The notes: a model not told the origin generated them from the sequence alone. Shown: positions 3,988 through 64,000, counted from the stretch's first letter. The stretch is 64,000 bases of DNA from a phage (GCA_019326865.1 GCA_019326865.1_4101.1), one strand, 5' to 3'. Program-made: numbers and translations.

Positions 3988-4507
<520 letters not shown>

Positions 4508-4508
4508 A

Positions 4509-4688: not shown

Positions 4689-4782
4689 ATATAGAAAATT
4701 GCGTTAGTGTATCTAAAGCACTTGCATAAATGATTAATTCATTATATAATGATTATCATTGGTTCTAAATGAGGATAATATT

Positions 4783-5055
4783 ATGCATTTTGAAAAATTC
4801 AACACAAGTCGTGACACACGCATTGATGTTCTTTATGAAACACAAGACTCAATTAGTATTCGTACACGTAGTGGTGATGTATATCATGACTGCACTATTG
4901 GTTGGAAACAGGGAAGAACACGTAGTGCAGAATTCGATAATTATCGCTTCTTCCAAGATGACACCACAATCTGGCCTGAAGATGTAGAAGATATTGCAAT
5001 CGAAGATGAACATAAAGATGAATTTATCAAATTTAATCCCCAAACCGAATCATAA
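4783..5055 (+). CDS. hypothetical protein
   Basis: SD GAGGAT before ATG 4783; track ORF 4759..5055 trimmed. Confidence 0.45.
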   Translation: MHFEKFNTSRDTRIDVLYETQDSISIRTRSGDVYHDCTIGWKQGRTRSAEFDNYRFFQDDTTIWPEDVEDIAIEDEHKDEFIKFNPQTES

Positions 5056-5098
5056 ATAATGGGACAGCACAAAAAGATGTGATATAATTATTAGTACT

Positions 5099-5170
5099 GA
5101 GGGGCTAGTTTAACGGATAAAACAGATTCCTTCTAAGAATCCAATCGGAGTTCGATTCTCCGGCCCTTTA
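5099..5170 (+). tRNA. tRNA-Arg (anticodon TCT)
   Basis: Cloverleaf: D-stem GTTT/AAAC, anticodon stem GATTC/GAATC with loop CTTCTAA, T-arm CGGAG-TTCGATT-CTCCG; acceptor with two G-U pairs. Confidence 0.7.
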
Positions 5171-5184
5171 TAAAATATAATATT

Positions 5185-5727
<543 letters not shown>

Positions 5728-5761
5728 TACAATTATATTCCATTAATTAAAAGGGAAAACC

Positions 5762-5926
5762 ATGACCCATGAAGAATGGTTAAGTGAACTAAAGTTCAGA
5801 TACTCCGGCATAGGTAATTGGCGAAAATATCATTGGGAGATTATATCAGACCCAGCAGAATACGATAAACTTATAAATCATGAAGTGTATCCGTGGTTCT
5901 TTATTGAAATAATGGTACGAATATGA
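5762..5926 (+). CDS. small protein, MTHxEW family (54 aa)
   Basis: Begins MTHEEWLSELKFRY; SD AAAGGGAAAA upstream. Confidence 0.45.
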   Translation: MTHEEWLSELKFRYSGIGNWRKYHWEIISDPAEYDKLINHEVYPWFFIEIMVRI

Positions 5927-6083
5927 CGCATGAAGAATGGATGAATGATATTAATTTTAGATATGCAGGTATTGGTAAATGGCTAAAGTATCATTGGGAA
6001 TTCATTTCAAAGTTGCATCTGTATGATAAACTTATCAACGACCCAGAATATAAAAAGTACTTAATTGAACTAATGGTAAGAAT

Positions 6084-6087
<4 letters not shown>
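5923..6087 (+). CDS. small protein, MTHxEW family (54 aa)
   Basis: Begins MTHEEWMNDINFRY; ATGA overlap with upstream stop. Confidence 0.45.
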
Positions 6088-6248
<161 letters not shown>

Positions 6249-6261
6249 TTAAAAAAAAAGC

Positions 6262-6699
<438 letters not shown>

Positions 6700-6708
6700 G
6701 TATTCAAT

Positions 6709-6782
<74 letters not shown>

Positions 6783-6840
6783 AAATTTAATAGGAGATGA
6801 TATGTTTAACGATGAACATCCAGATTTCTAAAAAAAGTTC

Positions 6841-6869
6841 TTGACCAAATAATTCAGAACTGATATCAT
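6841..6869 (+). promoter_or_regulatory. sigma70-type promoter, family A (variant)
   Basis: TTGACC-N17-TATCAT, spacer AAATAATTCAGAACTGA. Confidence 0.45.
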
Positions 6870-6901
6870 GTTTGTATATCAACAACAGAGGGTATATCGA
6901 A

Positions 6902-7141
6902 ATGGGTAAATATTTTGTGAGTTATAGTTATAATGTATCACGAAAAATTCCACGTGGTGACGGAATGGGATGGTCTTATGATGCATATACTTTAAATGAG
7001 TCATGTATCATCGAATTAAAAGAAAAAGACCTTGACATTCTAAAAATCAAACAATATATTCTTGATGTTGAATTGGCACATCGTACTGATATCTATCCAG
7101 ATGTAAATAACATCAGCATCTTAGTACTAACCAAAGTATAA
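6902..7141 (+). CDS. hypothetical protein
   Basis: Track ORF 6872..7141 trimmed to ATG 6902 downstream of promoter. Confidence 0.4.
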   Translation: MGKYFVSYSYNVSRKIPRGDGMGWSYDAYTLNESCIIELKEKDLDILKIKQYILDVELAHRTDIYPDVNNISILVLTKV

Positions 7142-7153
7142 GATAAAAGCACT

Positions 7154-7443
<290 letters not shown>

Positions 7444-7444
7444 T

Positions 7445-7537
<93 letters not shown>

Positions 7538-7554
7538 TTCACATGATATAGGGA

Positions 7555-7816
<262 letters not shown>

Positions 7817-7824
7817 GAATTTAA

Positions 7825-8226
7825 ATGAAAAAGAATGACTTGATCAAAATGCTTCAAGAAATTGACGGCAATCCAGAGATTGTTATTTGGAATGGATACG
7901 TCGATGATTATATGAACATCGAAAAAGGCTTGACTAAAATCACTCTAGTCAAAGAAACCGAACAGTTTCTTCAGGGTGCATTAGAGCACGAATGGTGTGA
8001 ACGTAACAATACATTCGACATTCCAGAAGACCAACGAACCAAGATTGCAGAACGTGCTAAAGAACTGCATAAGAAACGCGAATACGATTTCCAGAACCCA
8101 TATGTCACTGAAGACGAATTCAATCGCTGGTACGGTAAAAAGAAATTGACAAAGTATGTCCTTTCACCTAAACTACGTGGTAAGACTTCACTTGGTGTAT
8201 TCAACGCCGCAGACTTAAACTACTAG
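7825..8226 (+). CDS. hypothetical protein
   Basis: 133-aa ORF, co-oriented. Confidence 0.5.
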   Translation: MKKNDLIKMLQEIDGNPEIVIWNGYVDDYMNIEKGLTKITLVKETEQFLQGALEHEWCERNNTFDIPEDQRTKIAERAKELHKKREYDFQNPYVTEDEFNRWYGKKKLTKYVLSPKLRGKTSLGVFNAADLNY

Positions 8227-8238
8227 CGGGTATTATAA

Positions 8239-8503
<265 letters not shown>

Positions 8504-8547
8504 GATTCCCGATTCAGTAGTTTTAAAGCTGACCCGTATGTGCCTAT

Positions 8548-8589
<42 letters not shown>

Positions 8590-8590
8590 G

Positions 8591-8647
<57 letters not shown>

Positions 8648-8649
8648 TT

Positions 8650-8730
<81 letters not shown>

Positions 8731-8731
8731 G

Positions 8732-8782
<51 letters not shown>

Positions 8783-8799
8783 TACAACCGACAATGACT

Positions 8800-8874
<75 letters not shown>

Positions 8875-8926
8875 TGCCAAACAGCTTGAAGTACTTTGTA
8901 GTGCTGCACCTATGCCGACACTTGGC

Positions 8927-9027
<101 letters not shown>

Positions 9028-9039
9028 TATCTTACTTCT

Positions 9040-9129
<90 letters not shown>

Positions 9130-9135
9130 TACACT

Positions 9136-9561
9136 ATGACATACAACATTGTTAAAATGGTGAACTATGTATTAAAAAACAACGCATGGTCACTGCATGA
9201 TGTACAATTAGAAGATATTGGTGAAGTTAGAGTATTTTGCTATGATCCAGATTTGAATCAAACCACAGATTTGAGTAAATGTTTTAATATTTTTCTTGGT
9301 TATGAATTCAATAATCATTTTTATTCATTTGATGTGTATTTTGAAAAAGTTATATTCAGAAGTTATAAATGTGATAATGAAGATTATGATTATGATGATG
9401 AATCAATTGAATTGAATGTTAACGATATTGATACTGAAGAAAAATTCTTCCAGTACTGCCTCCTTAACGACACATTAGGATTAACATTTGAGGACATTAA
9501 AGCTATACTTAAAGTTCAAACGTTGATTCCAGAAGAGGTTCTAAATCCATTAAATGACTAG
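9136..9561 (+). CDS. hypothetical protein, FFQ-motif paralog family
   Basis: 141 aa; C-terminal EEKFFQYCLLNDTLGLTFEDI resembles neighbours. Confidence 0.5.
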   Translation: MTYNIVKMVNYVLKNNAWSLHDVQLEDIGEVRVFCYDPDLNQTTDLSKCFNIFLGYEFNNHFYSFDVYFEKVIFRSYKCDNEDYDYDDESIELNVNDIDTEEKFFQYCLLNDTLGLTFEDIKAILKVQTLIPEEVLNPLND

Positions 9562-9919
9562 TCTAATAGTACGTATAATGCAAGATGTTTGTAATAACCT
9601 TTATACAGGCAATTTTGACGATCCGAACATAAAAATATTATGTTATGATGGTTTTACAATGGTACATCCATCCTATTCAAATAATATCTACGTAGCATAT
9701 ACAGGTGAAAATCTATTATATCAATTTGATATATATAGTACAATGACAAAGATAATTTTGGATGCATCTAAACCAGCAATCTTTATTGCTTCTCATGATT
9801 ACAATTACACTGAAGAATCACTATTTCAGTACTCAATGATTAATGACATTGGTGGGTTGACATTGGATGAGGTTAATGCTATACTAGCTGTCTCACGTTT
9901 GGTTAAAACCCACAATTAG
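9554..9919 (+). CDS. hypothetical protein, FFQ-motif paralog family
   Basis: 121 aa; C-terminal EESLFQYSMINDIGGLTLDEV. Confidence 0.5.
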   Translation: MTSLIVRIMQDVCNNLYTGNFDDPNIKILCYDGFTMVHPSYSNNIYVAYTGENLLYQFDIYSTMTKIILDASKPAIFIASHDYNYTEESLFQYSMINDIGGLTLDEVNAILAVSRLVKTHN

Positions 9920-9928
9920 GAGATTCAT

Positions 9929-10120
9929 ATGTTCTGGAATTTATTATGCTTGTTTGGTCGTACATTGGTTCTTGCTATTATTCATACACCTGGTATTCGT
10001 AATTATGTTTCTTATGAATTTAAGAAAAATTATCACAACAATACTGAAGTTCGTACAACTAAGATGTGCAAAGACTTCAATGTAGATGTTCCACCATTCA
10101 AGAAGTACGAGGATGAATAA
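9929..10120 (+). CDS. hypothetical membrane protein
   Basis: 63 aa with N-terminal hydrophobic stretch. Confidence 0.4.
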   Translation: MFWNLLCLFGRTLVLAIIHTPGIRNYVSYEFKKNYHNNTEVRTTKMCKDFNVDVPPFKKYEDE

Positions 10121-10404
10121 TGGAATTCATTGTTGCACCTGATGAACTAAAAACATTCACGTTCCGAGACAATAACAATTATCCTTATACAAATCATTCA
10201 TTGAGTTCATTACATGTTATTTCAATCATTGCATCTGAATACAGGGATAATCCATGTATTGATTTTAAAACCACTGATGGCGAATATACATGGGTGATCC
10301 CAAAAGATAAATATAGTTATCAAGGGGCAGTAGAAATTCGTGACTCGATTCTAAAACAAATCGAAGATGGAAATACTCATCCTAAACTAAACACTCAGTA
10401 CTGA
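10120..10404 (+). CDS. hypothetical protein
   Basis: 94 aa; start overlaps upstream stop. Confidence 0.45.
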   Translation: MEFIVAPDELKTFTFRDNNNYPYTNHSLSSLHVISIIASEYRDNPCIDFKTTDGEYTWVIPKDKYSYQGAVEIRDSILKQIEDGNTHPKLNTQY

Positions 10405-10589
10405 AAATTTACCCTCTGATAGCTTTCAATCAGTACTGATTTTCTCCTTATGTATAGAAGCTATCACAATTACAATGATATTATTATCAATTCATTATAT
10501 TCTTTACCCTCCTAATAGTATCTAATATAAATTTATATAGATACTGTGATTTAGAAGTTGCATTTTAACTTCTTTCCTGTTATACTTAA

Positions 10590-10617
10590 GGCTGATTCGA
10601 TGAATCGGCCTTTTTTT
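10590..10617 (+). terminator. rho-independent terminator
   Basis: Hairpin GGCTGATTC-GAT-GAATCGGCC followed by T7. Confidence 0.6.
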
Positions 10618-10635
10618 CTTATATAGGGGAATATA

Positions 10636-11052
10636 ATGAATGATTTGTTTACTTTAATGGATAAGTATGTTGACATTGTATACCATCAAGTTTGTAATAA
10701 TACGTTTGAAACAAAAAACTCAATCAGAGATGGTAATTTTGTTGTTATAGTTGGATCATTTTTGAATGGATACACCGAGACATTATACAATAGTAATAAT
10801 ATTTTTATTTCAGTTCAGTCCAGACATACATCAGACTATTCTGTTAGCATTGATATTTGGGAAAATAATATAGAAATAGATATAACTGAATCTACTAATA
10901 TTTGTGTTGATGATTCATTTAATCAATTAACGGAAGAAATGTATTTGCAGTTGAATTTTTTATATAATCTTACCAATATCAGTTATGATACGTTAAGGAA
11001 AATATGTTTTCTTAGTGGGATGATACGTAATAATATGAATAAGGATGATTAG
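10636..11052 (+). CDS. hypothetical protein, FFQ-motif paralog family
   Basis: 138 aa; LTEEMYLQLNFLYNLTNISYDTL C-terminal region. Confidence 0.5.
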   Translation: MNDLFTLMDKYVDIVYHQVCNNTFETKNSIRDGNFVVIVGSFLNGYTETLYNSNNIFISVQSRHTSDYSVSIDIWENNIEIDITESTNICVDDSFNQLTEEMYLQLNFLYNLTNISYDTLRKICFLSGMIRNNMNKDD

Positions 11053-11473
11053 AATAATGATAAACATTCCACCTACTTCGCTAACATATCTAATTGAATG
11101 TGGTATAAAATTTTCCGAAGGAGATATCTCATCTTATACATCGGTTGATGGTTCTTACAAATTTTTATACCAATCTTATAAAAATAATTCTAAAGTTTCT
11201 TGTAGAGAGGCTGACAACATATTAATAGATGTTTCGTTACATAATGTTCCGAAATTTTATATTGATATCTTTGGTGATTCTTTAACAATTCGAACATATG
11301 ATTATTTTATTAATAAAGACCTCTTGAATCTTTCAATCGATCATGATACAATAGATTCAGAACTTTTCTTTCAACTTTCAACGGTTTCTGATTTACAGGG
11401 TTTAACTGTTGAGCAATTGAATGGTCTGTTTAAGATTTCAAGAAACATACGAAGCAGGAATAAAAATGTCTAA
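11045..11473 (+). CDS. hypothetical protein, FFQ-motif paralog family
   Basis: 142 aa; SELFFQLSTVSDLQGLTVEQL. Confidence 0.5.
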   Translation: MIRIMINIPPTSLTYLIECGIKFSEGDISSYTSVDGSYKFLYQSYKNNSKVSCREADNILIDVSLHNVPKFYIDIFGDSLTIRTYDYFINKDLLNLSIDHDTIDSELFFQLSTVSDLQGLTVEQLNGLFKISRNIRSRNKNV

Positions 11474-11879
11474 TATTTTAAATGAAAAAACAGTTGATAT
11501 TGTCATTGATGTACTAGAGAACAGTAATACATTTGAGAAGAAATATAGAACAGTGTACTTTGGTGAATATTGCTGGATACACTATATTTCAGAAAATTTA
11601 TTTATAATTCGTGTTGAAACGGATGATATTGGATTAACTATAAATGCATCTAATAAAAGTGGTAAGAAAATAACTATTATTTCCGATAAATCAAGTACAT
11701 CTTCTTTCTATGATAGAATTGATGATTGTGATCACTTCACGTCATCATTTTATGAGACAGAAGAAGAACATTTTATGGCTAGTACTGTTAAAGAATTACC
11801 TATTCCATTCAAATTGATGAAAGCGACAAGGGATTTTATCTTAAAATATAAAAAATCAGGAGTTTATAATGACATTTAA
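11466..11879 (+). CDS. hypothetical protein with C-terminal EEEHFMASTV motif
   Basis: Track ORF 11421..11879 trimmed to ATG 11466. Confidence 0.45.
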   Translation: MSNILNEKTVDIVIDVLENSNTFEKKYRTVYFGEYCWIHYISENLFIIRVETDDIGLTINASNKSGKKITIISDKSSTSSFYDRIDDCDHFTSSFYETEEEHFMASTVKELPIPFKLMKATRDFILKYKKSGVYNDI

Positions 11880-12318
11880 TGGTAATGTTTCTAAAGTGGG
11901 TTTAGTTTTTGAAAACTGTGAATTTGTTGAGATTGATGTAAATAATGTTTTATGGATGCATATTGCTGATGAAAAGACTCTTTGTAGCCGTTTTTCAAAT
12001 GGACTGACAATTAGTACTGGTATCGGTGAGTTTGGCATTGCATTACGTAGCAATACACCATCTGATTTCTTGGACAACTCCACATTGTTAGAACGTTTGA
12101 AAATGCGTGACGTGACACACGTTTATCTATATGATACTAACGGTGTTATTCAACGTTATGTAGTTGAATGGGCTGATTACAACCTTAATTGTCAATATTC
12201 CATAAACCAGCGTGTACAACTGACACCTGGTGGTAATATTGTGTTTGTTAGTTCAACTGGTAAATTAATCAGTGTAGATGATAAAAATATTGATTTGTTC
12301 ACTTTATATAATCAATAA
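11869..12318 (+). CDS. hypothetical protein
   Basis: 149-aa ORF, overlapping start with upstream gene. Confidence 0.5.
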   Translation: MTFNGNVSKVGLVFENCEFVEIDVNNVLWMHIADEKTLCSRFSNGLTISTGIGEFGIALRSNTPSDFLDNSTLLERLKMRDVTHVYLYDTNGVIQRYVVEWADYNLNCQYSINQRVQLTPGGNIVFVSSTGKLISVDDKNIDLFTLYNQ

Positions 12319-12351
12319 GATGATATTCTACATTTAGGTTGAGGGTAAAAA

Positions 12352-12717
12352 ATGATGAGCTTTATAACATTTACAATTATTTGTTGTATCACTATTATAA
12401 TTTGTCGTCTAATTCATGTATACTCATATCACAAAGCGTTGAGAATTGAGCAAGAGATTTATATTGAAAATCAACCAAAGAAAAAACCACCATCGCCTTA
12501 TGGATTGAAGCGTGAGATGCACTCTAAAAGTAAAGAGTGGGGGTATGCAATCACAAAACATGGTTACATTTATACAGCGAGTAATGGTTATTTTCAAATT
12601 CACCACAATTTAGATGTAGCTGTTAAGATTTTGTGGGAGATGGAGGATATTGGTGGTTATGAGCGTACTGAGTTTGAATTCATATCAAATGATACAGGAA
12701 CTTCACCAGAAGCATGA
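12352..12717 (+). CDS. hypothetical membrane-anchored protein
   Basis: 121 aa; SD GAGGG; N-terminal hydrophobic helix. Confidence 0.5.
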   Translation: MMSFITFTIICCITIIICRLIHVYSYHKALRIEQEIYIENQPKKKPPSPYGLKREMHSKSKEWGYAITKHGYIYTASNGYFQIHHNLDVAVKILWEMEDIGGYERTEFEFISNDTGTSPEA

Positions 12718-12833
12718 TATAATTATTGAAGGAAGTATACCGTATGTTAGAAGACTTCCAATTAAAAGCATTTATAATGAAGTTCTGTACAGATGAACAT
12801 CTTACTGGACGAGTAATACGTAAGGAGTTGTAA

Positions 12834-22949: not shown

Positions 22950-23314
22950 GCCTTGATACAACCCGTGCAACAGATTTATTCACTCGTCTGAATGATGAAG
23001 AATATCTTGCTGAAATAAAGTACAAGCTTGAAAAACTGGCTCGAAGTGCTGAAGTAATTGAAGTTAAAGGTCATTTACCAATGGATCAATTCCATACGTT
23101 CAAAGAAGATATGGTTTATTATCCAAATGAAATTTGGATTGAGTGGGAACATTGGACTAACAAAACTCTACGCATTGAAGGTTATTGTGTGAATTATGAA
23201 TCTGAACCTGGTGATGTTACAAAAACTCTCTCCATTTGGTGTACAAAAACACATGAACTAGTTGAGGTGAATTTGAATTATATGAAAGGTTTCCGTTGGG
23301 GTGATATTCAATGA
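22946..23314 (+). CDS. hypothetical protein
   Basis: 122-aa ORF. Confidence 0.5.
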   Translation: MSLDTTRATDLFTRLNDEEYLAEIKYKLEKLARSAEVIEVKGHLPMDQFHTFKEDMVYYPNEIWIEWEHWTNKTLRIEGYCVNYESEPGDVTKTLSIWCTKTHELVEVNLNYMKGFRWGDIQ

Positions 23315-23586
23315 TTAAAAAACTATTGACAGTTGTCTTTGTATTCTGTACAATGTTTCTTACAGCATGTAATGATGACGGCAGGTTTAGTGCAAAAGAC
23401 TTAGTTCGTCAGGATTGTACATTCACAGGTAAGTCTTTTATTAACGAGTATGAGGTATGTACACAACCAGGCCGTATCTGTGGTGCTTGGGAAAAACGAC
23501 AGGAGCGATTGTATGTATATGAATGCCCTGGACATCTCAACAAAGTAATAAGTACTCACAAACTTGTTTATGATAAGGTTGAATAA
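23311..23586 (+). CDS. putative lipoprotein
   Basis: Signal peptide with lipobox LTAC (MIKKLLTVVFVFCTMFLTACNDD). Confidence 0.55.
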   Translation: MIKKLLTVVFVFCTMFLTACNDDGRFSAKDLVRQDCTFTGKSFINEYEVCTQPGRICGAWEKRQERLYVYECPGHLNKVISTHKLVYDKVE

Positions 23587-23801
23587 TGACTACAAATGAA
23601 ATGATGCAGGTTATTTGGGATAAAGGTTGTGATATTAAAATCACTAGTACTGATGTTCGTGTGTTCAAAACTGAATACCTAGAGTACTTGGACCTTGATA
23701 CTTATAATAATATTGTAGCAATTGAACACAAAGGTGCAGTACTTGAAACTATTGATGTAGTTCTGAAGAAAGCAACAGACCTATTAGGTTCGTCAGTGTG
23801 A
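23586..23801 (+). CDS. hypothetical protein
   Basis: 71-aa ORF. Confidence 0.45.
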   Translation: MTTNEMMQVIWDKGCDIKITSTDVRVFKTEYLEYLDLDTYNNIVAIEHKGAVLETIDVVLKKATDLLGSSV

Positions 23802-23949
23802 ATAATAAAGAGTGGGAAGAATACCGAAAAAAATGCCGAGAGTTTGATAAAGAACTCACAGGTACAGTGAACGCGGTAATGTGGGTATCTGCAATTATTG
23901 CAGTACTTGGTTTGGGTGCTATTATTAATAAATTATTCTAAGGACTAAT

Positions 23950-29119: not shown

Positions 29120-29260
29120 TGTGAATTGAAATGAACATTTAATCATCATTGCAAATGTAGAAATGGTGTACATGAAGTATAATATAAAAAGGGAAATCAT
29201 ATATGGCTTCCCCTTTTTCTTATTACGTACAATTAAGTACATATATTAATTGAGGAAATT

Positions 29261-56730: not shown

Positions 56731-57124
56731 TTCAACATAGAGACAGGGGAAGCTCCGCAGGGTAAGCATTGGACAGGCTTTAACATATGTTATATATGTT
56801 AAAATTCAGCCTGGACAAATGCGATCACTAGGATTCTCCCCAGGCTAAACCCCGTAATCATATATAAACATTTAAGTAATCATTTATAATCATTGTGGTG
56901 ATCAGTAGTGATTAGTATTGAGTACTAGAGTGTAATAGAGTACAGGAATGTGCACGTTTAATCAAGAACGTAGCAGTACTGATATGCCACTAAGTAGGCA
57001 GAGGAAGTCTGCCGTACTTTGTAGTTTCCAAGCTCCTTTTCCATTTTGCAAATTACATCAAATGTAATCAAAAGTAATCACGTAATGATTAGTACTGAAA
57101 TATTAGTTTCATCTTTTTTCAAAT

Positions 57125-57200
57125 ACCTTTTTACCCTTCGGGATAAATGTATTTTTATCCATTTACCTTTGGGGTAAAATCCCATTACCCCTTGAGGCTC
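57125..57200. repeat. three degenerate ~15-bp direct repeats
   Basis: TACCCTTCGGGATA / TACCTTTGGGGTAA / TACCCCTTGAGGCT in ORF-free DNA. Confidence 0.5.
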
Positions 57201-57386
57201 CAGCAAAAAGTTGGAAAGTACTCCATCGTAAATATGGATCGTAAAAATTTTGGAGTACCTATGAAATAAAAGTTGGATCTTCGAAAGTTGAAATTTACGT
57301 TGGGACATTGATGTTTTTTGGGATATAATGAGTTTTGTAGTGATGAAGTTTGTACGATTACAGTACTGAATAATGAAAGAAAGCTA

Positions 57387-57414
57387 TTGACATTATGATT
57401 CAGTACTGTATAAT
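57387..57414 (+). promoter_or_regulatory. sigma70-type promoter, family A, with no ORF downstream
   Basis: TTGACA-N16-TGTATAAT with TTCAGTACTG spacer; nearest downstream ORF of 60 aa or more is 1.3 kb away. Confidence 0.5.
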
Positions 57415-57785
57415 GTTCTACATAGAGAGATGAGTTGCCGCAAACAATTCATTCACTCTACCTCCTGTCGTGAGACAGTACAGAAAAGATAGTTCCTCCT
57501 ATGCGTGGTACATCTTTTTATAACCTCTTTTTTCGTAATATAAACAGTACTGGTATTAACAGAATGGTATCAGTACTGACTTTAATCTAATACATTATGC
57601 CACCAGCACAAGCTGGTGGATTCCCTCTAACAGTATTCAGTACTACATGATAGTCTTCATCCTCCTAGGGTAACATAGTGAGGGCTATTGTGGGAGTACT
57701 GAATACTCCTTTCAAAAGATAGAATAATGGTATAGTACCGACGGATTTTGGGCGTAGTTACCCTGGGTGGATTTTGGACGTAGAT

Positions 57786-57932
57786 ATGTCTAGCCCTCCA
57801 GAAGTCTGGAAGTAAAGATGGCTATCCATCTAGACGGCTAAACGGATAGATTTCTAGATGGCTGTATGGCTAGACGTTTGGATGGCTAAACGGCTAGATG
57901 GTTACACGTCTGGAAGTATAGACGGCTAAATC
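57786..57932. repeat. iteron-like cluster of short direct repeats
   Basis: GGCTAAACGG x2, GTCTGGAAGTA x2, GATGGCT x3, TAGACGG x2, TAGATGG x2 within ~150 bp. Confidence 0.55.
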
Positions 57933-58619
57933 AAAATTTTTATTTTGTTTTTCCAATAGTTCCCCTACCGCGTGAGGATATTTTTCCCCGCAGTATCTGG
58001 AGTTAGATTTTTCTGAATCTGGAATCATTATCTAATAAACTGGGGGCAATGTCAACCGCCTGGATGAATATTTTTAAAAATAATCTAGTACTGAATTTTG
58101 GGCGTAACTATGCACCCGGTGGGCTTGAGTCTTTCTCGACTTGATGAAACTATTATACAGTACTAGAAAAATAAAGCAATACCCTAAACGCAAAAAATTT
58201 AATTAATTTGCTTGCTATCCTGGGCCGTACTATGGTACTATTAGTTCAGTACTGAGAAAGTGCTTTAACCTGCTAGGGTGCGGGAGTGTATCCTTTTTAA
58301 ATTATATGAATTTTGGACGCAATCCCGCACCCTGTGGGTTAGTGCCTTGTGTCCGGCTTATGTAGTAATTATACGCTTTTTCAGTACTGAGTCAATAGCT
58401 AAAAACAAAAATAATTGAAAATAATTTAACGCGTTTAAACGGCCCGTAAAGCCCTGGAGTGATTGGAATGGTACAAATGTATAGCTTAGGTGTATTAATG
58501 CGTTAGAATGCGTCTGAGGCCGTTTTACGGGGTGTAGTGGTGATTTGGTTGATTCAGTACTGAATGATAGTATTCCTATATAGAAAGAAAACTATTTTAA
58601 AAGTACATGTAGAAAGTAC

Positions 58620-58647
58620 TTGCAAAGTATTGGGAAAGGTGTAGAAT
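58620..58647 (+). promoter_or_regulatory. promoter, family B (TTGCAA-N16-TAGAAT) + 5' hairpin
   Basis: Followed by TTTTACATCGAG and hairpin AGCGGGAA-CAC-TTCCCGCT (58661-58679). Confidence 0.55.
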
Positions 58648-58702
58648 GTTTTACATCGAGAGCGGGAACACTTCCCGCTGCACATAAAGAGAGATTAAAA
58701 CG

Positions 58703-59065
58703 ATGGCTACTCAAATCAATAAAATTATTGCTAACCTGGTTAACTTCCGCGACGAGATGAAAGGTCTTCCGGCTGAAACGGTAAAAATTCACATTTCAGC
58801 TTATCGGGAACTTATTGCAATGTTACCGCTTAAGCGTGAACAATACGCCGCTACCGTGATGCTTGATGCGATGATCCATGAGATGATCGCCAGTGATTTA
58901 ACGATGGTTTATCAGTACATGGGCGAAAATTTCGCGGTGTCTGGTAAGCCAGTACCAGGGATGGCAACTACTGAGGAATTGCACGGTTTAAATTTAAAAC
59001 AAGATGCATGGGATAATATGCCTCGTTTCCTGGTATGGGCTGACAGTGGCAAAATTTACAAATAA
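58703..59065 (+). CDS. hypothetical protein
   Basis: 120 aa; higher-GC codon usage typical of the 58.6-64 kb block. Confidence 0.55.
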   Translation: MATQINKIIANLVNFRDEMKGLPAETVKIHISAYRELIAMLPLKREQYAATVMLDAMIHEMIASDLTMVYQYMGENFAVSGKPVPGMATTEELHGLNLKQDAWDNMPRFLVWADSGKIYK

Positions 59066-59079
59066 GTTTAATAAAGTAC

Positions 59080-59107
59080 TTGCATACTAAGTTAAAACAA
59101 GTATAAT
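59080..59107 (+). promoter_or_regulatory. promoter, family B (TTGCAT-N16-TATAAT) + 5' hairpins
   Basis: Followed by hairpins GGGAAGTTT/AAACTTCCC and AGGGGAA-TAG-TTCCCC. Confidence 0.55.
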
Positions 59108-59186
59108 ACTTTCTATCAGGTGCAACGGGAAGTTTTTAAACTTCCCTATAGGGGAATAGTTCCCCACTATATAAGAGGATTAAAAA

Positions 59187-59426
59187 ATGGCTAAATCAAA
59201 AATGTTCTTAGGTCACAAAAACAAAACTCATTGGAATGTAAGCCTTTGGATTAATAACGATGAGTCATTGTACCGGTTGGCCCAGGACTTTATTGCCGCC
59301 AACACTAATCGCAATGATGCGGCCCGTCATATGATGTTATTTTTAGAACAGACTGGACAAGATAAAACACCGGACGGATTCAAATATAGCACTACTGCGA
59401 TCCGTGCGGCGATGGTTGGAATGTAA
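59187..59426 (+). CDS. hypothetical protein, 79-aa paralog A
   Basis: SD AGAGGAT; KNKTHWNVSLWINNDESLYR ... PDGFKYSTTAIRAAMVGM; paralog of 61223 ORF. Confidence 0.6.
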   Translation: MAKSKMFLGHKNKTHWNVSLWINNDESLYRLAQDFIAANTNRNDAARHMMLFLEQTGQDKTPDGFKYSTTAIRAAMVGM

Positions 59427-59511
59427 TAGAATTTATTTAAAGTACTATCGCAAAAAATGATAGTACTTTATAATAGTGTTTTATTCATACACCAACGATA
59501 AGGGCAACAGC

Positions 59512-59778
59512 ATGAATATTAAGTATTTTGCGACGCGTGAACAAGCTCGGAAGGCGGCGAAAGTGGAAGGTGCAACGTTTAAAGATATGGGCATACAATC
59601 GGAACGTGGTAAACGTTGGGCCATTGTAAAGCGTAGTACAGCCAGATCATTACAGTACTGGTTATCAGCTTTAAAAAGTCCTGATAGTGTATCGCGTCGA
59701 GTGGTAGAAATAAAGCTCGACCGTAAGGGGAATCGTGTTACCGTGTACCGTACTAAAAAGATTGCAGTACTTGAATAA
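59512..59778 (+). CDS. hypothetical basic protein
   Basis: Track ORF 59476..59778 trimmed to ATG 59512. Confidence 0.45.
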   Translation: MNIKYFATREQARKAAKVEGATFKDMGIQSERGKRWAIVKRSTARSLQYWLSALKSPDSVSRRVVEIKLDRKGNRVTVYRTKKIAVLE

Positions 59779-59784
59779 AAGTAC

Positions 59785-59812
59785 TTGCAAAGTAAGTTAA
59801 AAGGCGTATAAT
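59785..59812 (+). promoter_or_regulatory. promoter, family B (TTGCAA-N16-TATAAT) + 5' hairpin
   Basis: Hairpin GTGGGGAA-TAC-TTCCCCAC at 59825-59843. Confidence 0.55.
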
Positions 59813-59862
59813 ACTTTCTATCAGGTGGGGAATACTTCCCCACTACATAAGAGGATTTAAAA

Positions 59863-60093
59863 ATGGCTACCATGTACATGACCGAAGTTAAAACCGTAAA
59901 AGATACTACCACAAATAAAACTACTTACTTACAGCGGATCTGTGGTGTATGGCAACGTATTAGTAAAGTAAAGTACTTTAAATTAACATCATATGCCAAT
60001 CGTTCGGATTCATTCAGTACTGAAATAAAAGGTAATAAAGTACACCAATACGGCACTTATTATTATTATAGCCTGGACGCGATTGCAGTATAA
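59863..60093 (+). CDS. hypothetical protein
   Basis: 76 aa; SD GAGGAT. Confidence 0.5.
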   Translation: MATMYMTEVKTVKDTTTNKTTYLQRICGVWQRISKVKYFKLTSYANRSDSFSTEIKGNKVHQYGTYYYYSLDAIAV

Positions 60094-60340
60094 GCAGTTT
60101 ACAAATCTTTACAATTGCCGGTATTGACTTAAAATGTCAGTACTGGCATAATGTATCTATTGAAACGAACAATTTGGCCCACGGGGTGCGGGAGTGTATC
60201 TATAGAAAAAGTAGTTTAGTACAGTTACAATTGTGCACCCGGTGGGTTAGCTGTTGTCATGGGGTATATTATGCCAGTACTTGATAATGCTGTCAATACC
60301 TTTTTACTATTCAGTACTGAAAACTATTTGATAAAAAGTA

Positions 60341-60368
60341 CTTGCAAACTATGTTTAAAGGCGTATAA
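60341..60368 (+). promoter_or_regulatory. promoter, family B (TTGCAA-N16-TATAAT) + 5' hairpin
   Basis: Followed by TTTTACATCAGG and imperfect hairpin ACGGGGAAC...CTTCCCGT; no ORF before next promoter. Confidence 0.5.
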
Positions 60369-60458
60369 TGTTTTACATCAGGACGGGGAACGAAATAAGT
60401 AACTTCCCGTTAAGTAGCCCAGGAGTAAGGCATACGAAAAACTCCCCTGATAAAATAG

Positions 60459-60487
60459 TTTGACAATTGTTTTTAAAAGCGTATAAT
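60459..60487 (+). promoter_or_regulatory. sigma70-type promoter (TTGACA-N17-TATAAT)
   Basis: Upstream of ORF 60520. Confidence 0.5.
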
Positions 60488-60519
60488 ACTTACATCAACT
60501 ACTTAATGAGGGTTACAAA

Positions 60520-61131
60520 ATGAAAACTATCACTACTACTACTTATGTTATGGATTTTTCTGAATTAAACGCAGAACAAAAAACGTCAGCTATCGAACTG
60601 GTTCGGGAACGTGAAAAAAACTTAAACGACGATTATTTTTCTGAAAGTGAAATTGAATACTATAAAGAAACAGTACTACCGGAATATGGCATTAATGAAG
60701 CTGAAATACAATTCAGTGGTTTTTGGTCGCAGGGTGACGGTGCATCAATTAGTACTGACCACGTTGACGCAGTGAAGTTTTTACGTAAGGTAAGAGCATT
60801 AACTAAGTATCGCTCAATCCGTCACCTGCTGAATGAAGATGATTTGGCGATGAGTGTAAAGCGTTCTCACTCCCGCTACTCACATGAGAACACTGTAAGC
60901 GGGTACATTGAATCGGCTTACACTGATTTAACCGCAAAACAAGAAACGTTAGTTAATGGGCTTGAGGAACTGCTCACTGATACTATTCGTGAATTGTCAC
61001 GCAAGTTATACCGTGATTTAGAGAATGCATATGAGGATCAATTCACTACTGAAAACATCGTATCACTGATTGAGGGTAACGAATATCAATTCAATGTTAT
61101 TGATGGCGTAGTAGAATCAATTGCATATTAA
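60520..61131 (+). CDS. hypothetical protein
   Basis: 203 aa; SD GAGGGT. Confidence 0.55.
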   Translation: MKTITTTTYVMDFSELNAEQKTSAIELVREREKNLNDDYFSESEIEYYKETVLPEYGINEAEIQFSGFWSQGDGASISTDHVDAVKFLRKVRALTKYRSIRHLLNEDDLAMSVKRSHSRYSHENTVSGYIESAYTDLTAKQETLVNGLEELLTDTIRELSRKLYRDLENAYEDQFTTENIVSLIEGNEYQFNVIDGVVESIAY

Positions 61132-61138
61132 AAAGTAC

Positions 61139-61166
61139 TTGCAAACTAAGTTTAAAAGCGTATAAT
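61139..61166 (+). promoter_or_regulatory. promoter, family B (TTGCAA-N16-TATAAT) + 5' hairpin
   Basis: Hairpin GCGGGGGAA-TGG-TTCCCCTGC at 61180-61200. Confidence 0.55.
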
Positions 61167-61222
61167 ACTTTATATCGAGGCGGGGGAATGGTTCCCCTGC
61201 TCAAACAAACGAGGATTTAAAA

Positions 61223-61462
61223 ATGGCTAGTACTAAAACTTACAACGGACACAAAAACAAAACTCATTGGAATGTTTCATTGTGGATTAATAACGATGAA
61301 TCATTATACCGGATTGCTCAAAATTGCATCGCTCAAAGTAAAACGAAAGATATTGCAGCGGAATTTATGTACCGCAGATTAAAAGCCAACGGTACTACTA
61401 CAACGCCGGACGGATTCAAGTATAGCACTACGGCGATCCGTGCTGCAATGGTTGGAATGTAA
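61223..61462 (+). CDS. hypothetical protein, 79-aa paralog B
   Basis: SD GAGGAT; same KNKTHWNVSLWINNDESLYR and PDGFKYSTTAIRAAMVGM blocks as 59187 ORF. Confidence 0.6.
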   Translation: MASTKTYNGHKNKTHWNVSLWINNDESLYRIAQNCIAQSKTKDIAAEFMYRRLKANGTTTTPDGFKYSTTAIRAAMVGM

Positions 61463-61518
61463 CATTCAGTACTGAATCAATGGCGGGTGTGGTTCCCGCC
61501 TTTACTGAGGATTATCTA

Positions 61519-61800
61519 ATGAGTAAAGTAATTAACTATACAGTACTAAGCAAGTCATTATCTATTAGCCAGTGCACCGATGGTTTTTGGCTGTACGATG
61601 AAACGCGTGGCATGAATTTAGCTATGCAGGAGAAAACTGCTGATGCGGCATATCTTAAAGCACTGGAATACTACCAGAAGCGTTTAACGGAAGTAGAAAA
61701 CGATTATAATAACCTTAAAGCGAAAGTGGATAATTTCGTTGGTCAATTCGTTGACGATGACGAGGGGCACTACTGCGACCGTTGTGGATCTTACAGTTAA
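61519..61800 (+). CDS. hypothetical protein
   Basis: SD GAGGAT before ATG 61519; track start 61480 rejected. Confidence 0.45.
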   Translation: MSKVINYTVLSKSLSISQCTDGFWLYDETRGMNLAMQEKTADAAYLKALEYYQKRLTEVENDYNNLKAKVDNFVGQFVDDDEGHYCDRCGSYS

Positions 61801-61817
61801 GTACTAAGGATTATATA

Positions 61818-62021
61818 ATGAGTGATTTAATTGAACGTATCAAAGAGCTTGAAGAAAAAGAATTGCAGTTGATCGGTTTACAGAATAAAATCTATCATGA
61901 TTTGGGGAGTTTTATCAATGCGTGGGATAATGGCGATCCTGATGCGTTACCTGCTAACCGCCAGGCAATGATCAATGATGTGCGTGGTGTCTTTGAGTAT
62001 GTTTTAAAGCAATTAAATTAA
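61818..62021 (+). CDS. hypothetical protein
   Basis: SD AAGGAT before ATG 61818. Confidence 0.45.
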   Translation: MSDLIERIKELEEKELQLIGLQNKIYHDLGSFINAWDNGDPDALPANRQAMINDVRGVFEYVLKQLN

Positions 62022-62031
62022 AAAAAAGTAC

Positions 62032-62059
62032 TTGCAATTAGTTTTTAGTACTGTATAAT
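62032..62059 (+). promoter_or_regulatory. promoter, family B (TTGCAA-N16-TGTATAAT) + 5' hairpin
   Basis: Hairpin AGGGGAGAA-ATG-GTTCTCCCT at 62070-62090. Confidence 0.55.
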
Positions 62060-62109
62060 GTTTTACATAGAGGGGAGAAATGGTTCTCCCTGGTAATGAG
62101 GAAAATACA

Positions 62110-62331
62110 ATGGCTAATATCACTACTCTTTCTCAACTGGAAGCACTGGTTAAATCTATGCGGGAACATGCCGACAAAATCGGCGTAAAAGATCCAGCCG
62201 TTTGCTTCTGCGACGAAATGAATGATGATACATTGGTAATAGCAGAAGTTCAGGACGTTTCTAACTATTCATCGCGTTACACTGGCGGCGTAGCAAATAA
62301 AGGTGACTTCTGTTTATACCTTACCAAATAA
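62110..62331 (+). CDS. hypothetical protein
   Basis: SD GAGGAAAA before ATG 62110; first ATG lies inside 5' hairpin and was rejected. Confidence 0.5.
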   Translation: MANITTLSQLEALVKSMREHADKIGVKDPAVCFCDEMNDDTLVIAEVQDVSNYSSRYTGGVANKGDFCLYLTK

Positions 62332-62336
62332 CAACG

Positions 62337-62366
62337 CGGGGAGATAATAACTCCCCGTTACTTTTT
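62337..62366 (+). terminator. rho-independent terminator
   Basis: CGGGGAG-ATAATAA-CTCCCCG followed by T-run. Confidence 0.55.
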
Positions 62367-62499
62367 CAGTACTGAATAATTTAATAGACGGATCTATGCA
62401 CCCAGTGGGTTAGTGACTGTTTCGTCTTTATGTAGTAATTATGCCAGTACTGGATGCACTTGTCAACAACTATTTTTCAAATACTTTTTATTAAAATAC

Positions 62500-62527
62500 T
62501 TGCAATTAGTTTTTAAACGCGTATAAT
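62500..62527 (+). promoter_or_regulatory. promoter, family B (TTGCAA-N16-TATAAT) + 5' hairpin
   Basis: Hairpin GGGGGAGCGGTTCCCC at 62538-62553. Confidence 0.55.
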
Positions 62528-62574
62528 GTTTTGCATAGGGGGAGCGGTTCCCCTGGTAACTAAGGAATAAGAAA

Positions 62575-62811
62575 ATGGTCGAACAAATCAAATCAACGTC
62601 TTCGAATGTAACGGGAACGGTAGCACACTTTACTTGTGATGAATCGCGGGGCGTTCCCTATTGTGCTGTACATGTAAACACTGAGGGTAACTACTGGTTT
62701 ACGGTTTACGGATCATATTCATTTGGACGGCCAGGGCATCAAAAAATTCTGGATAAAGTACAACCAACGGGTAAAAATATCACTGCCGAAATGTTTTATA
62801 AAAACAAATAA
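62575..62811 (+). CDS. hypothetical protein
   Basis: 78-aa ORF. Confidence 0.5.
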   Translation: MVEQIKSTSSNVTGTVAHFTCDESRGVPYCAVHVNTEGNYWFTVYGSYSFGRPGHQKILDKVQPTGKNITAEMFYKNK

Positions 62812-62828
62812 AAGTACTTGATAATAGT

Positions 62829-62856
62829 TTGACTATGTATTACAGTACTGTATAAT
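62829..62856 (+). promoter_or_regulatory. promoter (TTGACT-N16-TGTATAAT) + 5' hairpin
   Basis: Spacer contains TACAGTACTG; hairpin AGGGGCGAA-TAG-TTTGCCCCT. Confidence 0.5.
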
Positions 62857-62905
62857 AGATACATAAGGGGCGAATAGTTTGCCCCTAGTACAAAGGGGAA
62901 ACATT

Positions 62906-63136
62906 ATGCCAGGCCGAATAGTTTTACTTAACGCTGGAAGTACTACACAACTCCTTAACGCCGTGTATTATGATATTGAAACGAGCGTCAATCTTATCAG
63001 TACTGTAGTATTGTTGGACACTGGAAAGGTCGCAAATGATAAAGCGATTGCAGGTATACTAACGGATCTTAAACCAGGTTGCAGTACTCCAATAACTTTA
63101 AATGATAAAGTGTTTAATATTTTACTAACTGATTAA
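62906..63136 (+). CDS. hypothetical protein
   Basis: SD AAGGGGAAA before ATG 62906. Confidence 0.5.
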   Translation: MPGRIVLLNAGSTTQLLNAVYYDIETSVNLISTVVLLDTGKVANDKAIAGILTDLKPGCSTPITLNDKVFNILLTD

Positions 63137-63142
63137 GTACAT

Positions 63143-63170
63143 AGCCCACCTGGTGGGCTTTTTTGTTTTT
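63143..63170 (+). terminator. rho-independent terminator
   Basis: AGCCCACC/GGTGGGCT hairpin + T-run. Confidence 0.7.
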
Positions 63171-63208
63171 GTAGTACTGCATACTTTGAAAATAGTTTTA
63201 AAAAAGTA

Positions 63209-63237
63209 GTTGACATTACCGCAAAAAGGCGTAGAAT
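63209..63237 (+). promoter_or_regulatory. sigma70-type promoter (TTGACA-N17-TAGAAT)
   Basis: Followed by TTACATCAAG leader. Confidence 0.5.
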
Positions 63238-63360
63238 GTATTACATCAAGACGGGGAGCACTAAGTAGACCGCCAGTAAGTCGAACGAAAAACTGGACAC
63301 GTCGAGAAAACTTTGATACACTAACTAACATAAACTAAACTTTAATTGAGGATTTATAAA

Positions 63361-63843
63361 ATGGCTAATGTAAAATCATTTCTGAAAGCACTGATTTCTA
63401 ACGATACTGCTATTGCTGCTGAATTGCTGGCGGATCTGGATAGCGATACCATGAAAGCGGTACGCAACAATTTTAACATTGCGTACAGTGAAGCTAAAGA
63501 ACTGCAAGCCAAAAAGATAGCAGAACTGGAAGAACAGAAAAAAGCCCGTGAAGAAGAATTACAAGCAACAATTGAAAGTATTCAGGCGGCGGTTGCAGGG
63601 TTGGATCTGGAAGTAGTTATTGAAATGGCACATAAAGCCCTGGCAGTTAAGTACGGTGAAGATAAGCCAGTATCTAAACCTAAAAAATGGATTCAGGAAC
63701 GCGTAACGGTTGTTCTTGATAATGGCGAGGAACATTTAATTCCCGTGCGTGGTAACTGCATTGCGGTAGTTCTGGATGCTATCAAAGAAAGCGGATTGAC
63801 TCGCGAGGAATGGATCGAAGCTCACCGCAAGATTGAAGCATAA
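63361..63843 (+). CDS. hypothetical protein
   Basis: SD GAGGAT before ATG 63361. Confidence 0.55.
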   Translation: MANVKSFLKALISNDTAIAAELLADLDSDTMKAVRNNFNIAYSEAKELQAKKIAELEEQKKAREEELQATIESIQAAVAGLDLEVVIEMAHKALAVKYGEDKPVSKPKKWIQERVTVVLDNGEEHLIPVRGNCIAVVLDAIKESGLTREEWIEAHRKIEA

Positions 63844-63864
63844 CAATTAAAGTACTGAATCACT

Positions 63865-63892
63865 AGCCCACTTCTTATAGTGGGCTTTTTTG
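63865..63892 (+). terminator. rho-independent terminator
   Basis: AGCCCACT-TCTTAT-AGTGGGCT + T6. Confidence 0.7.
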
Positions 63893-64000
63893 TGTTTATC
63901 GTTTACCAGTCCACTAGCACCGCCTAGAATCGATTCTAACGCATTAAACTGGTCGCCCTAGCTGGTGGCATTAATGCCGTTAGAACGCGATTGAGGACGT

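Follow-up and report, generated by a model that had tools for sequence, protein, structure and literature searches.

Repeated promoter cassettes with a predicted leader hairpin in the terminal repeat of a probable Asteriusvirus jumbo coliphage

Why should one small phage gene after another be introduced by almost the same promoter, followed each time by almost the same hairpin? The question is raised by positions 58.6 to 63.2 kb of a 64,000-nucleotide stretch of phage DNA (GCA_019326865.1_4101.1), the whole of which we call the window, where the original prediction had recognized a second promoter dialect with a conserved hairpin in the 5' leader. The window very probably derives from an Asteriusvirus jumbo coliphage; its array region shares 95% identity with Escherichia phage ph0011 and 88-93% with the other Asteriusvirus jumbo phages matched. 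Our overall explanation, which we would back and doubt in equal measure, is that promoters and hairpins make up an array of cassettes in the direct terminal repeat (DTR) that would be transcribed early by the host machinery, with a 5' stem-loop that would affect the fate of the mRNA and a repeated sequence that would serve as a recombination substrate.

A mechanical scan for sigma-70-type promoters found ten on the plus strand between 58.6 and 63.2 kb, matching the ten upstream regions named in the original prediction, with −35 elements starting at 58620, 59080, 59785, 60342, 60460, 61139, 62032, 62500, 62829 and 63210. All ten have a 16-nt spacer, 9-12 of 12 hexamer matches and an A-tract upstream; seven read AAGTAC-TTGCA(A/T)-N16-TA(T/G)AAT and three are TTGAC(A/T) variants. 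The motif AGTACTTGCAA, allowing at most one mismatch, occurs 14 times in the window compared to 1.8 expected, and the interval 58615-62505 holds all five exact copies together with two one-mismatch copies. An independent repeat finder placed a 63-nt unit (8 copies) and a 42-nt unit (9 copies) at these cassette positions. The motif counts, the promoter scan and the repeat finder jointly bear out the claim of a distinct and highly conserved promoter family. The accompanying claim that nearly every gene has the motif held for 6 of the 12 genes directly and for the gene at 60520 through a tandem pair, but not for those at 61520 and 61819, which have no promoter, or for that at 59512, whose cassette is degenerate; the GAGGAT Shine-Dalgarno (SD) sequence likewise appeared in some copies only and is not general.

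The cassette is a near-identical sequence of ~90 nt in which an A-tract with AGTAC, the −35 element (TTGCA(A/T) or TTGAC(A/T)), the 16-nt spacer, TATAAT, a start motif, a stem-loop, an SD and the start codon follow in this order. The start motif, Y-A-T, lies 7-9 nt past the −10 element (five variable bases, a pyrimidine, then an invariant A-T at 8-9), and sigma-70 holoenzyme is expected to initiate at such a position, which gives a predicted leader of about 43-45 nt. The stem of 6-10 bp starts 13-14 nt past the −10 in most copies (10-16 nt overall) and encloses a loop of 3-5, up to 14, nt; its 5' arm is 89-96% purine and its 3' arm 4-11%. The hairpin is fixed in position 6-9 nt upstream of the SD, and the distance from the stem end to the start codon, with the SD in between, is 17-25 nt (median 20) in 45 of 47 cases. 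When the start is put at the invariant A, the 5' end and the stem, which is downstream of the −10, are 1-6 nt apart in 44 of 47 distinct leaders, in agreement with the proposal that the hairpin sits at the predicted 5' end of the transcript.

Folding of the ten leaders showed a stable stem-loop downstream of eight promoters (−11.4 to −16.5 kcal/mol, z −1.5 to −3.0 against shuffled sequences), the stem starting 10-14 nt past the −10 in seven of these eight; the promoter at 60342 has a long-loop version, and no hairpin was found after those at 60460 and 63210. Strong hairpins starting within 20 nt past the −10 occur at 7 of 14 promoter-like sites in 57-64 kb compared to 4 of 55 in 1-57 kb, and in 8-11% of random 55-nt windows. 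The pattern GGGAA-N2-14-TTCCC is present 8 times in the window versus 0.17 expected, six of these at 58664-61196. A covariance model of the hairpin, with seven window copies in its training set, gave 7 matches at E<0.005, all on the plus strand at 58.65-62.89 kb, and the scan of the remaining 57 kb yielded a single weak palindrome at 29183.

The individual sites, all on the plus strand, are as follows. Cassette 1 (58605-58702) has the A-tract with AAGTAC, −35 TTGCAA at 58620-58625, −10 TAGAAT at 58642-58647, the hairpin AGCGGGAA-cac-TTCCCGCT at 58661-58679 (−12.6 kcal/mol, z −3.0), an SD, and an ATG at 58703. Cassette 2 (59066-59186; −35 TTGCAT at 59080, −10 at 59102-59107, ATG at 59187) has two hairpins in tandem, GGGAAGTT..AACTTCCC at 59127-59146 and GGGGAA-tag-TTCCCC at 59151-59165, the first being a 28-nt insertion that starts 20 nt past the −10 and was found in none of the relatives compared. 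Read from the sequence itself, a degenerate cassette at 59447-59474, upstream of the gene at 59512-59778, consists of AAAGTAC and ATCGCA (a 3/6 match)-N16-TATAAT without a hairpin. Cassette 4 (59770-59862; −35 TTGCAA at 59785, −10 at 59807-59812, ATG at 59863) carries GGTGGGGAA-tac-TTCCCCACT at 59824-59844 (−14.2 kcal/mol, z −2.7). A tandem unit (60328-60519) follows, whose first part comprises a promoter at 60342-60369, the long-loop hairpin ACGGGGAAC..CTTCCCGT at 60383-60410 and a second hairpin, with no open reading frame (ORF), and whose second part is a hairpin-less promoter, TTGACA-N16-TATAAT, at 60460-60487 before the ATG at 60520. Cassette 6 (61125-61222; −35 TTGCAA at 61139, −10 at 61161-61166, ATG at 61223) has the hairpin GGCGGGGGAA-tgg-TTCCCCTGCT with an internal G.U at 61179-61201 (−16.5 kcal/mol). 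A hairpin without a promoter, GGCGGG-tgtggtt-CCCGCC, stands with an SD at 61482-61500 before the gene at 61520; the G17 orthologue is a complete cassette, and the window site is therefore a remnant of a recombination junction. Cassette 8 (62018-62109; AAGTAC-TTGCAA at 62032, tagtactgTATAAT at 62054-62059, ATG at 62110) is a hybrid, and its hairpin GGGGAGAA-atgg-TTCTCCCT at 62072-62091 is the best match of the covariance model (30.6 bits). Cassette 9 (62485-62574) has AATAC-TTGCAA at 62500, a −10 at 62522-62527, a hairpin with a G.U at 62536-62555 and an ATG at 62575. Cassette 10 (62812-62905) is chimeric, with the relic AAAGTACTTGATA, TTGACT at 62829, N16, cagtactgTATAAT at 62851-62856, the hairpin AGGGGCGAA-tag-TTTGCCCCT at 62866-62886 and an ATG at 62906. 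Finally, cassette 11 (63195-63361) reads AAAAAGTAG-TTGACA at 63210, N16, TAGAAT at 63232-63237, and has a ~110-nt leader without a canonical hairpin (z +0.3) before the ATG at 63362.

Contrary to the original prediction, the leader hairpin is not tied to the TTGCAA dialect: TTGACA...cagtactgTATAAT promoters in the same array bear it as well. Within the terminal repeat, promoters of the form TTGACA-N16-(c/t)agtactgTATAAT have the start motif, hairpin and SD of the TTGCAA form, and the ph0011 array contains 8 TTGACA-type promoters, several in a cagtactgTATAAT −10 context, with the same start sequence, hairpin and SD. The TTGACA-N17-agtactggCATAAT promoters of the repeat have a correctly spaced TG and no hairpin, and terminator-embedded TTGACT promoters drive tiny non-coding units. 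The TTGCAA promoters are interleaved with these other forms, and some sites combine them; the hybrid promoter at 62032 joins AAGTAC-TTGCAA to agtactgTATAAT, and the TTGACT promoter at 62829 keeps the relic AAAGTACTTGATA upstream. Moreover, the Erwinia phage pEa_SNUABM_12 (Eneladusvirus) has the same AAAAAGTAC-TTGCA(A/T) promoters, mostly without a hairpin; the TTGCAA form, conserved in that genus, is thus a genuine promoter type of considerable age.

What, then, sets the array apart from the first 57 kb? Base 1 of phage fEgEco12, whose direct terminal repeats of 20,993 bp have termini determined by PhageTerm and confirmed with restriction digests (PMC13070987), aligns exactly with window position 56993, and so does base 1 of vB_Ec-M-J, in whose record a repeat is annotated at 1-21525. 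Therefore, the window leaves unique sequence and enters the DTR at its left end, with the left physical genome end at 56993 and, at 56993-64000 (plus strand), the first 7 kb of a repeat of ~21 kb. The border of the second dialect is accordingly the physical start of the DTR, a border of genome architecture and not a regulatory one inside a uniform genome. On entering the repeat, the GC content rises from 0.30-0.35 to 0.38-0.39; the repeat opens with 1.7 kb of non-coding DNA, and its first gene begins at 58703. In the relatives, the ~21-kb repeat contains roughly 40-45 promoter-like sites, about half of them with a strong leader hairpin. In ph0011, the promoter array spans 4.9-24 kb, the entire repeat, and ends where overlapping genes without intergenic gaps start; the covariance-model matches in the 50 kb of this genome that were searched are confined to 5027-23842. 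The array genes encode products of 60-200 aa, all of PHROG 'unknown function', with only two DUF matches in Pfam.

A comparable location has been described for the host-takeover module of SPO1, which lies in the terminal redundancy (PMC6873191). The likeness consists in a terminal repeat full of small early genes, each equipped with a strong promoter of host type and a strong ribosome-binding site, and the difference in the phage family. To our knowledge, neither a conserved leader hairpin nor a repeated ~90-nt cassette has been reported from terminal-repeat early modules such as that of SPO1. In the searched literature on Asteriusvirus, RaK2, PA5oct, CBB, rV5 and fEgEco12, the cassettes and leader hairpins are not described, and only lists of RpoD-like promoters are given; experimental knowledge of expression in Asteriusvirus/RaK2-like jumbo phages is limited to such lists. 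The map of the terminal repeat offers a precise, testable outline of a likely immediate-early module.

The next question is whether the hairpin exists as RNA or as a DNA palindrome. Among the window, ph0011, A4, G17 and SHEFM2K, we distinguished 43 hairpins with 31 different stems and 23 different loops. As the hairpins were chosen for pairing, their 100% pairing is by construction and is no evidence; the evidence is the variety of stems. Stem variation mainly involves changes between GC and AU via GU, with some between GC and CG, and the internal non-Watson-Crick juxtapositions, counted only where at least two Watson-Crick pairs were present on each flank, comprise 7 G.T, 0 A.C and 1 C.T. Furthermore, the sense-strand fold was more stable than the antisense fold in 42 of 56 cases, and the opposite was observed in 9. 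Because of the G.U-only bias, the variable loops and the 31 stems, the leader stem-loop is best read as a sense-strand RNA element, a reading drawn from small numbers. The same letters could form a palindromic DNA operator at +6 to +25, at which a dimeric repressor would shut off the early promoters, given that GGGGAA-N3-TTCCCC resembles two half-sites and overlaps the initially transcribed region. We regard such an operator as highly improbable, considering that the half-sites are spaced by 3-5 and up to 14 nt and vary with compensating changes, and that the asymmetric G.T-only mismatches are A.C on the opposite strand, an asymmetry not expected of a palindrome bound by protein as duplex DNA.

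Alignment-based tests bear on the same point with technical limits. Applied to 39 leaders aligned with MAFFT, RNAalifold found no base pairs, the arms being out of register, and the covariance-model alignment of 85 matches was mixed in register, with pairing in the loop-3 and loop-4 classes of 85% at slide 0 against 83% at slide +1. In that alignment, 0 of 500 shuffles reached the observed covariation, a result that is indicative only given the mixed register; the pairing statistics were accordingly taken from the per-sequence parse. CMSTMSU (UNVERIFIED_ORG), in which G-runs look collapsed, was left out of the statistics. A search of Rfam 15 gave no family match, only a sub-threshold Trp_leader match at the 63865 terminator, and a pattern scan of IMG/VR matched phage 121Q itself alone.

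The closest known system is the promoter-early stem-loop (PeSL) cassettes of T4-like phages, described for RB49/phi1, PST/T4 and nt-1/KVP40 (Arbiol et al. 2010, PMC2839356; Comeau et al. 2014, PMC4122927), and the array consists of PeSL-like cassettes with a leader hairpin. Both have a sigma-70 early promoter close to the consensus, an AT-rich tract ahead of it and an adjacent G-run/C-run stem-loop followed by an SD and a start codon; both occur as one cassette per small ORFan, clustered in a hyperplastic region; and in both, indel and replacement junctions between close relatives lie in or beside the cassettes, even within the stem-loop. They differ in that the stem here is almost always downstream of the predicted start, in the leader, whereas the PeSL stem mostly lies between or over the −35 and −10 elements, or upstream, and is read as a terminator; the array hairpins, moreover, have no T-run. 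The carriers also differ, being Asteriusvirus (in the terminal repeat) and Vequintavirinae instead of T4-like phages, and terminator activity and mini-circles are known for PeSL, whereas the array is known from sequence alone. The first 57 kb of the window contain another class that comes closer to PeSL, its −35 being overlapped by a terminator hairpin. At 28003, 30800, 33349, 37862, 41258 and 42542, in the non-repeat part of the genome, we observed composite terminator/promoters of the form GGTTGACT-tcg-GTCAGCC-TTTTTT-g-TATAAT, with the −35 within the terminator stem and the T-run as the spacer, which is the classic PeSL arrangement.

This likeness makes it necessary to ask whether the leader hairpins terminate transcription. 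As assigned to the PeSL stem-loops, an attenuator or terminator would damp both read-through from the upstream gene and the output of the cassette's own very strong promoter, and so even out expression along the array. In RB49/phi1, a polyG/polyC PeSL stem-loop between promoter and lacZ lowered expression to the same degree as rrnB T1, and the strength of the PeSL promoters prevented their intact cloning (PMC2839356); in addition, ARNOLD called one G17 hairpin a terminator (L001 4400-4419, the orthologue of 61482-61500, with TTT after it). However, a T-run is absent after every leader hairpin, the sequence that follows being ACTAAGAGG, TGGTAAC and similar, which falls short of the U-tract of an intrinsic terminator, and the terminator scan of the gene array called only three canonical sites of hairpin plus T-run, distinct from the leader hairpins, at 62336-62358, 63143-63159 and 63865-63886 (plus strand). 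The leader hairpins lie at a fixed distance downstream of their own promoters, and some directly follow canonical terminators (62336 and then the cassette at 62500; in ph0011, 13468 and then 13601, and 20466 and then 20589), with ordinary T-run terminators elsewhere in the array. We accordingly consider the attenuator unlikely. Because the stems follow the consensus −10 at a distance of 10-16 nt, initiation beyond a stem is implausible, and on sequence grounds, with start sites predicted, the hairpins do not appear to be terminators of upstream genes, the outcome that would have refuted the original prediction.

For the leader hairpin, we consider an effect on the fate of the mRNA, from a position near the predicted 5' end, most likely. 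Host RNA polymerase with sigma-70 would transcribe the cassette genes immediately after infection, as an early module of the host-takeover type, and the stem-loop would form in the RNA a few nucleotides from the 5' end of each transcript. There, it would act as a 5'-terminal stem-loop of the ompA/papA type, hindering decay by the 5'-end-dependent pathway of RppH and then RNase E (PMC9943677), so that expression would be raised or prolonged, and the hairpin-less cassettes in the array would yield shorter-lived messages. We rate this specific role as an mRNA stabilizer as plausible, if somewhat on the doubtful side. Base pairing at the 5' terminus reportedly protects E. coli mRNAs (Emory 1992; Bouvet & Belasco 1992; both cited through PMC3997798). 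The limit of protection is reportedly (Emory) ~2-4 unpaired nt at the 5' end. Placing the start at the invariant A leaves a predicted unpaired 5' tail of 1-4 nt in 26 of the 47 leaders and of 5-6 nt in 18, a partial fit. The array shares with ompA and papA a short, stable hairpin a few nucleotides from the 5' end of a short-leader mRNA; by contrast, those stabilizers were shown by experiment on single genes, whereas the array has a predicted 5' end, a tail of 1-6 nt and one and the same hairpin repeated on dozens of phage messages.

Several points weigh against a stabilizing sense-strand RNA element. With a start 2 nt further upstream, most 5' tails would exceed the reported limit of ~4 nt. 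Scanning RNase E readily bypasses simple non-terminal stem-loops (PMC9943677), and therefore the effect would depend wholly on proximity to the 5' end. No start site, half-life or expression timing for Asteriusvirus was found in the literature searched. There is no evident benefit to translation either, the predicted probability that the SD is unpaired being 0.76 with the hairpin and 0.74 without it. As for the RNA structure itself, only 7 G.U were counted, and some copies are paralogues; the purine/pyrimidine polarity is strict and the stem sequence near-constant, which may reflect common descent or could reflect sequence-specific recognition. Finally, the AAGTAC-TTGCA(A/T) promoters of Eneladusvirus mostly have no hairpin, and the hairpin is therefore dispensable for promoter function. 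Considered and dropped were the hairpin as an obstacle to scanning RNase E, given that simple stem-loops are bypassed (PMC9943677), and the hairpin as a device that keeps the SD open, given the nearly equal accessibility (0.76 vs 0.74 without it).

The near-constant stem leads to an alternative in which GGGGA(G)AA/UUCUCCCC is an RNA operator common to some 25-40 early leaders. A phage or host protein would recognize this stem and turn the whole set off or on, for which translational repression, targeted cleavage and a boxB/N-like mark for antitermination are examples of a mechanism. In accord with this possibility, the stem sequence and its polarity (5' arm 89-96% purine) are far more constant than pairing needs, A-U is found at the two closing positions in 32-35 of 43 hairpins, G is the last loop base in many, the spacing to the SD downstream is fixed at 6-9 nt, and removal of the 5' arm is predicted to free the C-rich arm to mask the SD (unpaired probability falling from 0.76 to 0.49). 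Nevertheless, the loops vary in sequence and length (23 among the 43 hairpins), there are 31 stems, a candidate binding protein was not identified, and the constancy is accounted for by the shared descent of the cassettes. The comparison with lambda nut boxB and HK022 put, the latter a ~70-nt two-hairpin leader RNA element (PMC9378689), is instructive in that these also are promoter-proximal RNA stem-loops in early phage transcripts; however, boxB has a conserved loop recognized by N and, as a nut site, occurs once per operon, whereas here the loops are diverse and every gene's leader has a copy. On balance, a shared RNA operator seems improbable to us.

Hairpin-less cassettes in the same array share the remaining leader (ATCAAG...ACTAAGAGGAAA; for example ...ATCAAGACAACTAAGAGGAAA...), and together with the Eneladusvirus promoters, they indicate that the stem is an optional module, which would tune expression, and not part of the promoter. 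The same cassettes, the mostly hairpin-less Eneladusvirus promoters of this type, and the replacement of whole cassettes between orthologous sites could also mean that the stem-loop has no function of its own and is a passenger of a repeat unit spread by duplication and recombination and kept only through homogenization of the cassettes by recombination. This appears quite unlikely, given that all 31 stems keep the pairing with mismatches that are G.U only, that the promoter-less copy at 61482-61500 retains stem and SD, and that the hairpin was kept after transfer into Vequintavirinae. The array provides, side by side, hairpin-plus and hairpin-minus forms of a compact natural part that combines promoter and leader; a stabilizer or an operator, if true, would explain the joint expression, and perhaps the joint shut-off, of dozens of host-takeover ORFans.

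The second part of our explanation concerns gene shuffling. Seven of the nine distinct synteny breakpoints relative to ph0011, A4, G17 and SHEFM2K lie inside cassettes, with one of the others at a terminator and one at a gene end, and two breakpoints relative to fEgEco12 (61196 and 62015) also fall at cassettes. The breakpoint at 59122/59151 corresponds to the extra hairpin; those at 61196-61209 and 61490-61492 delimit a gene swap bounded by two hairpins, the second of them promoter-less in the window and part of a full cassette in G17; that at 62015/62025 is the start of cassette 8; and those at 62830-62857 and 62889 enclose a gene found in ph0011 and missing in the window. The cassettes fill most of the intergenic space, and selection for intact genes would also place breaks there; junctions inside the stem or at the −35 are more telling than an intergenic location. 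Because they are ~90 nt of near-identical sequence, the cassettes can act as recombination substrates, and recombination at them would swap, delete or insert cassette-plus-ORF units. Two genes at 59187-59426 and 61223-61462, each with a cassette in front, are paralogous 79-aa DUF7249 genes, 73-79% identical overall and 91% identical across the last 64 nt, which suggests gene conversion.

The exchange apparently extends beyond the genus. Escherichia phage W70 (Vequintavirinae, rV5-like, 137 kb; OP778610.1, 72960-79053) carries the cassettes, for example AAAAAGTAC-TTGCAA-N16-TATAAT-acattACATcaa-GGGGAGAA-atga-TTCTCCCC-actaagagg, and, although unrelated, has four or five cassette-plus-ORF units in common with the Asteriusvirus terminal repeat, at 70-90% identity and in scrambled order. 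This points to PeSL-style gene shuffling outside the T4-like phages and across phage families. A broader proposal would combine a mobile expression unit of promoter, leader hairpin, SD and ORFan, exchanged across families between Asteriusvirus and rV5-like Vequintavirinae by recombination at the ~90 nt, with the GGGGA(G)AA/UUCUCCCC stem as a shared RNA operator letting one factor control the early set post-transcriptionally; this combination we consider a long shot, though not a negligible one. BLAST also listed records of Phapecoctavirus, Justusliebigvirus and 'Campylobacter' phages.

Several elements accompany the cassettes. The sequence at 60313-60503 is a repeated 191-nt element made of a promoter, the long-loop hairpin, a second hairpin (CAGGAG..CTCCCCTG), no ORF and a second promoter; ph0011 has two copies, A4 has three, of which one is inverted, and W70 has one that is 90% identical. 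Tiny ORF-less promoter-driven units are located at 58123 (minus strand), 58338 (minus), 60178 (plus), 60246 (minus) and 62409 (minus), two of them converging at 60124-60296, with 9 copies in ph0011 and 9 in pEa_SNUABM_12. Each has its own sigma-70 promoter (often agtactggCATAAT, or with the −35 in a terminator hairpin), ~30 nt with a variable small hairpin, and then the conserved (C)TAA-CCC-N3-4-GGGTGC-(A/G)..GTATCTAT. This family, common to Asteriusvirus and Eneladusvirus and without an Rfam match, may be a small-RNA family or a protein-binding site.

At the non-coding physical end (56993-58600), there are several promoters on both strands, a hairpin with a 14-bp stem at 57545-57578 made of two CAGTACTG copies, and short repeats of the GGCTA(A/G)ACGG type at 57800-57930; the elements of this region are possibly related to packaging or to the terminus. 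AGTACT is over-represented throughout the window (184 vs ~22 expected), as is CAGTACTG (48 vs 0.8), in both coding and non-coding DNA and at the highest density in the terminal repeat, and TTCAGTACTGAA frequently stands directly after stop codons; in promoters, AGTACT simply fills one of two phased positions. Finally, seven tRNA genes (two for Gly and one each for Arg, Ser, Met, Asn and Thr) are present at 4194-9119, several of them directly behind TTGACT...cagtactgaTATAAT promoters.

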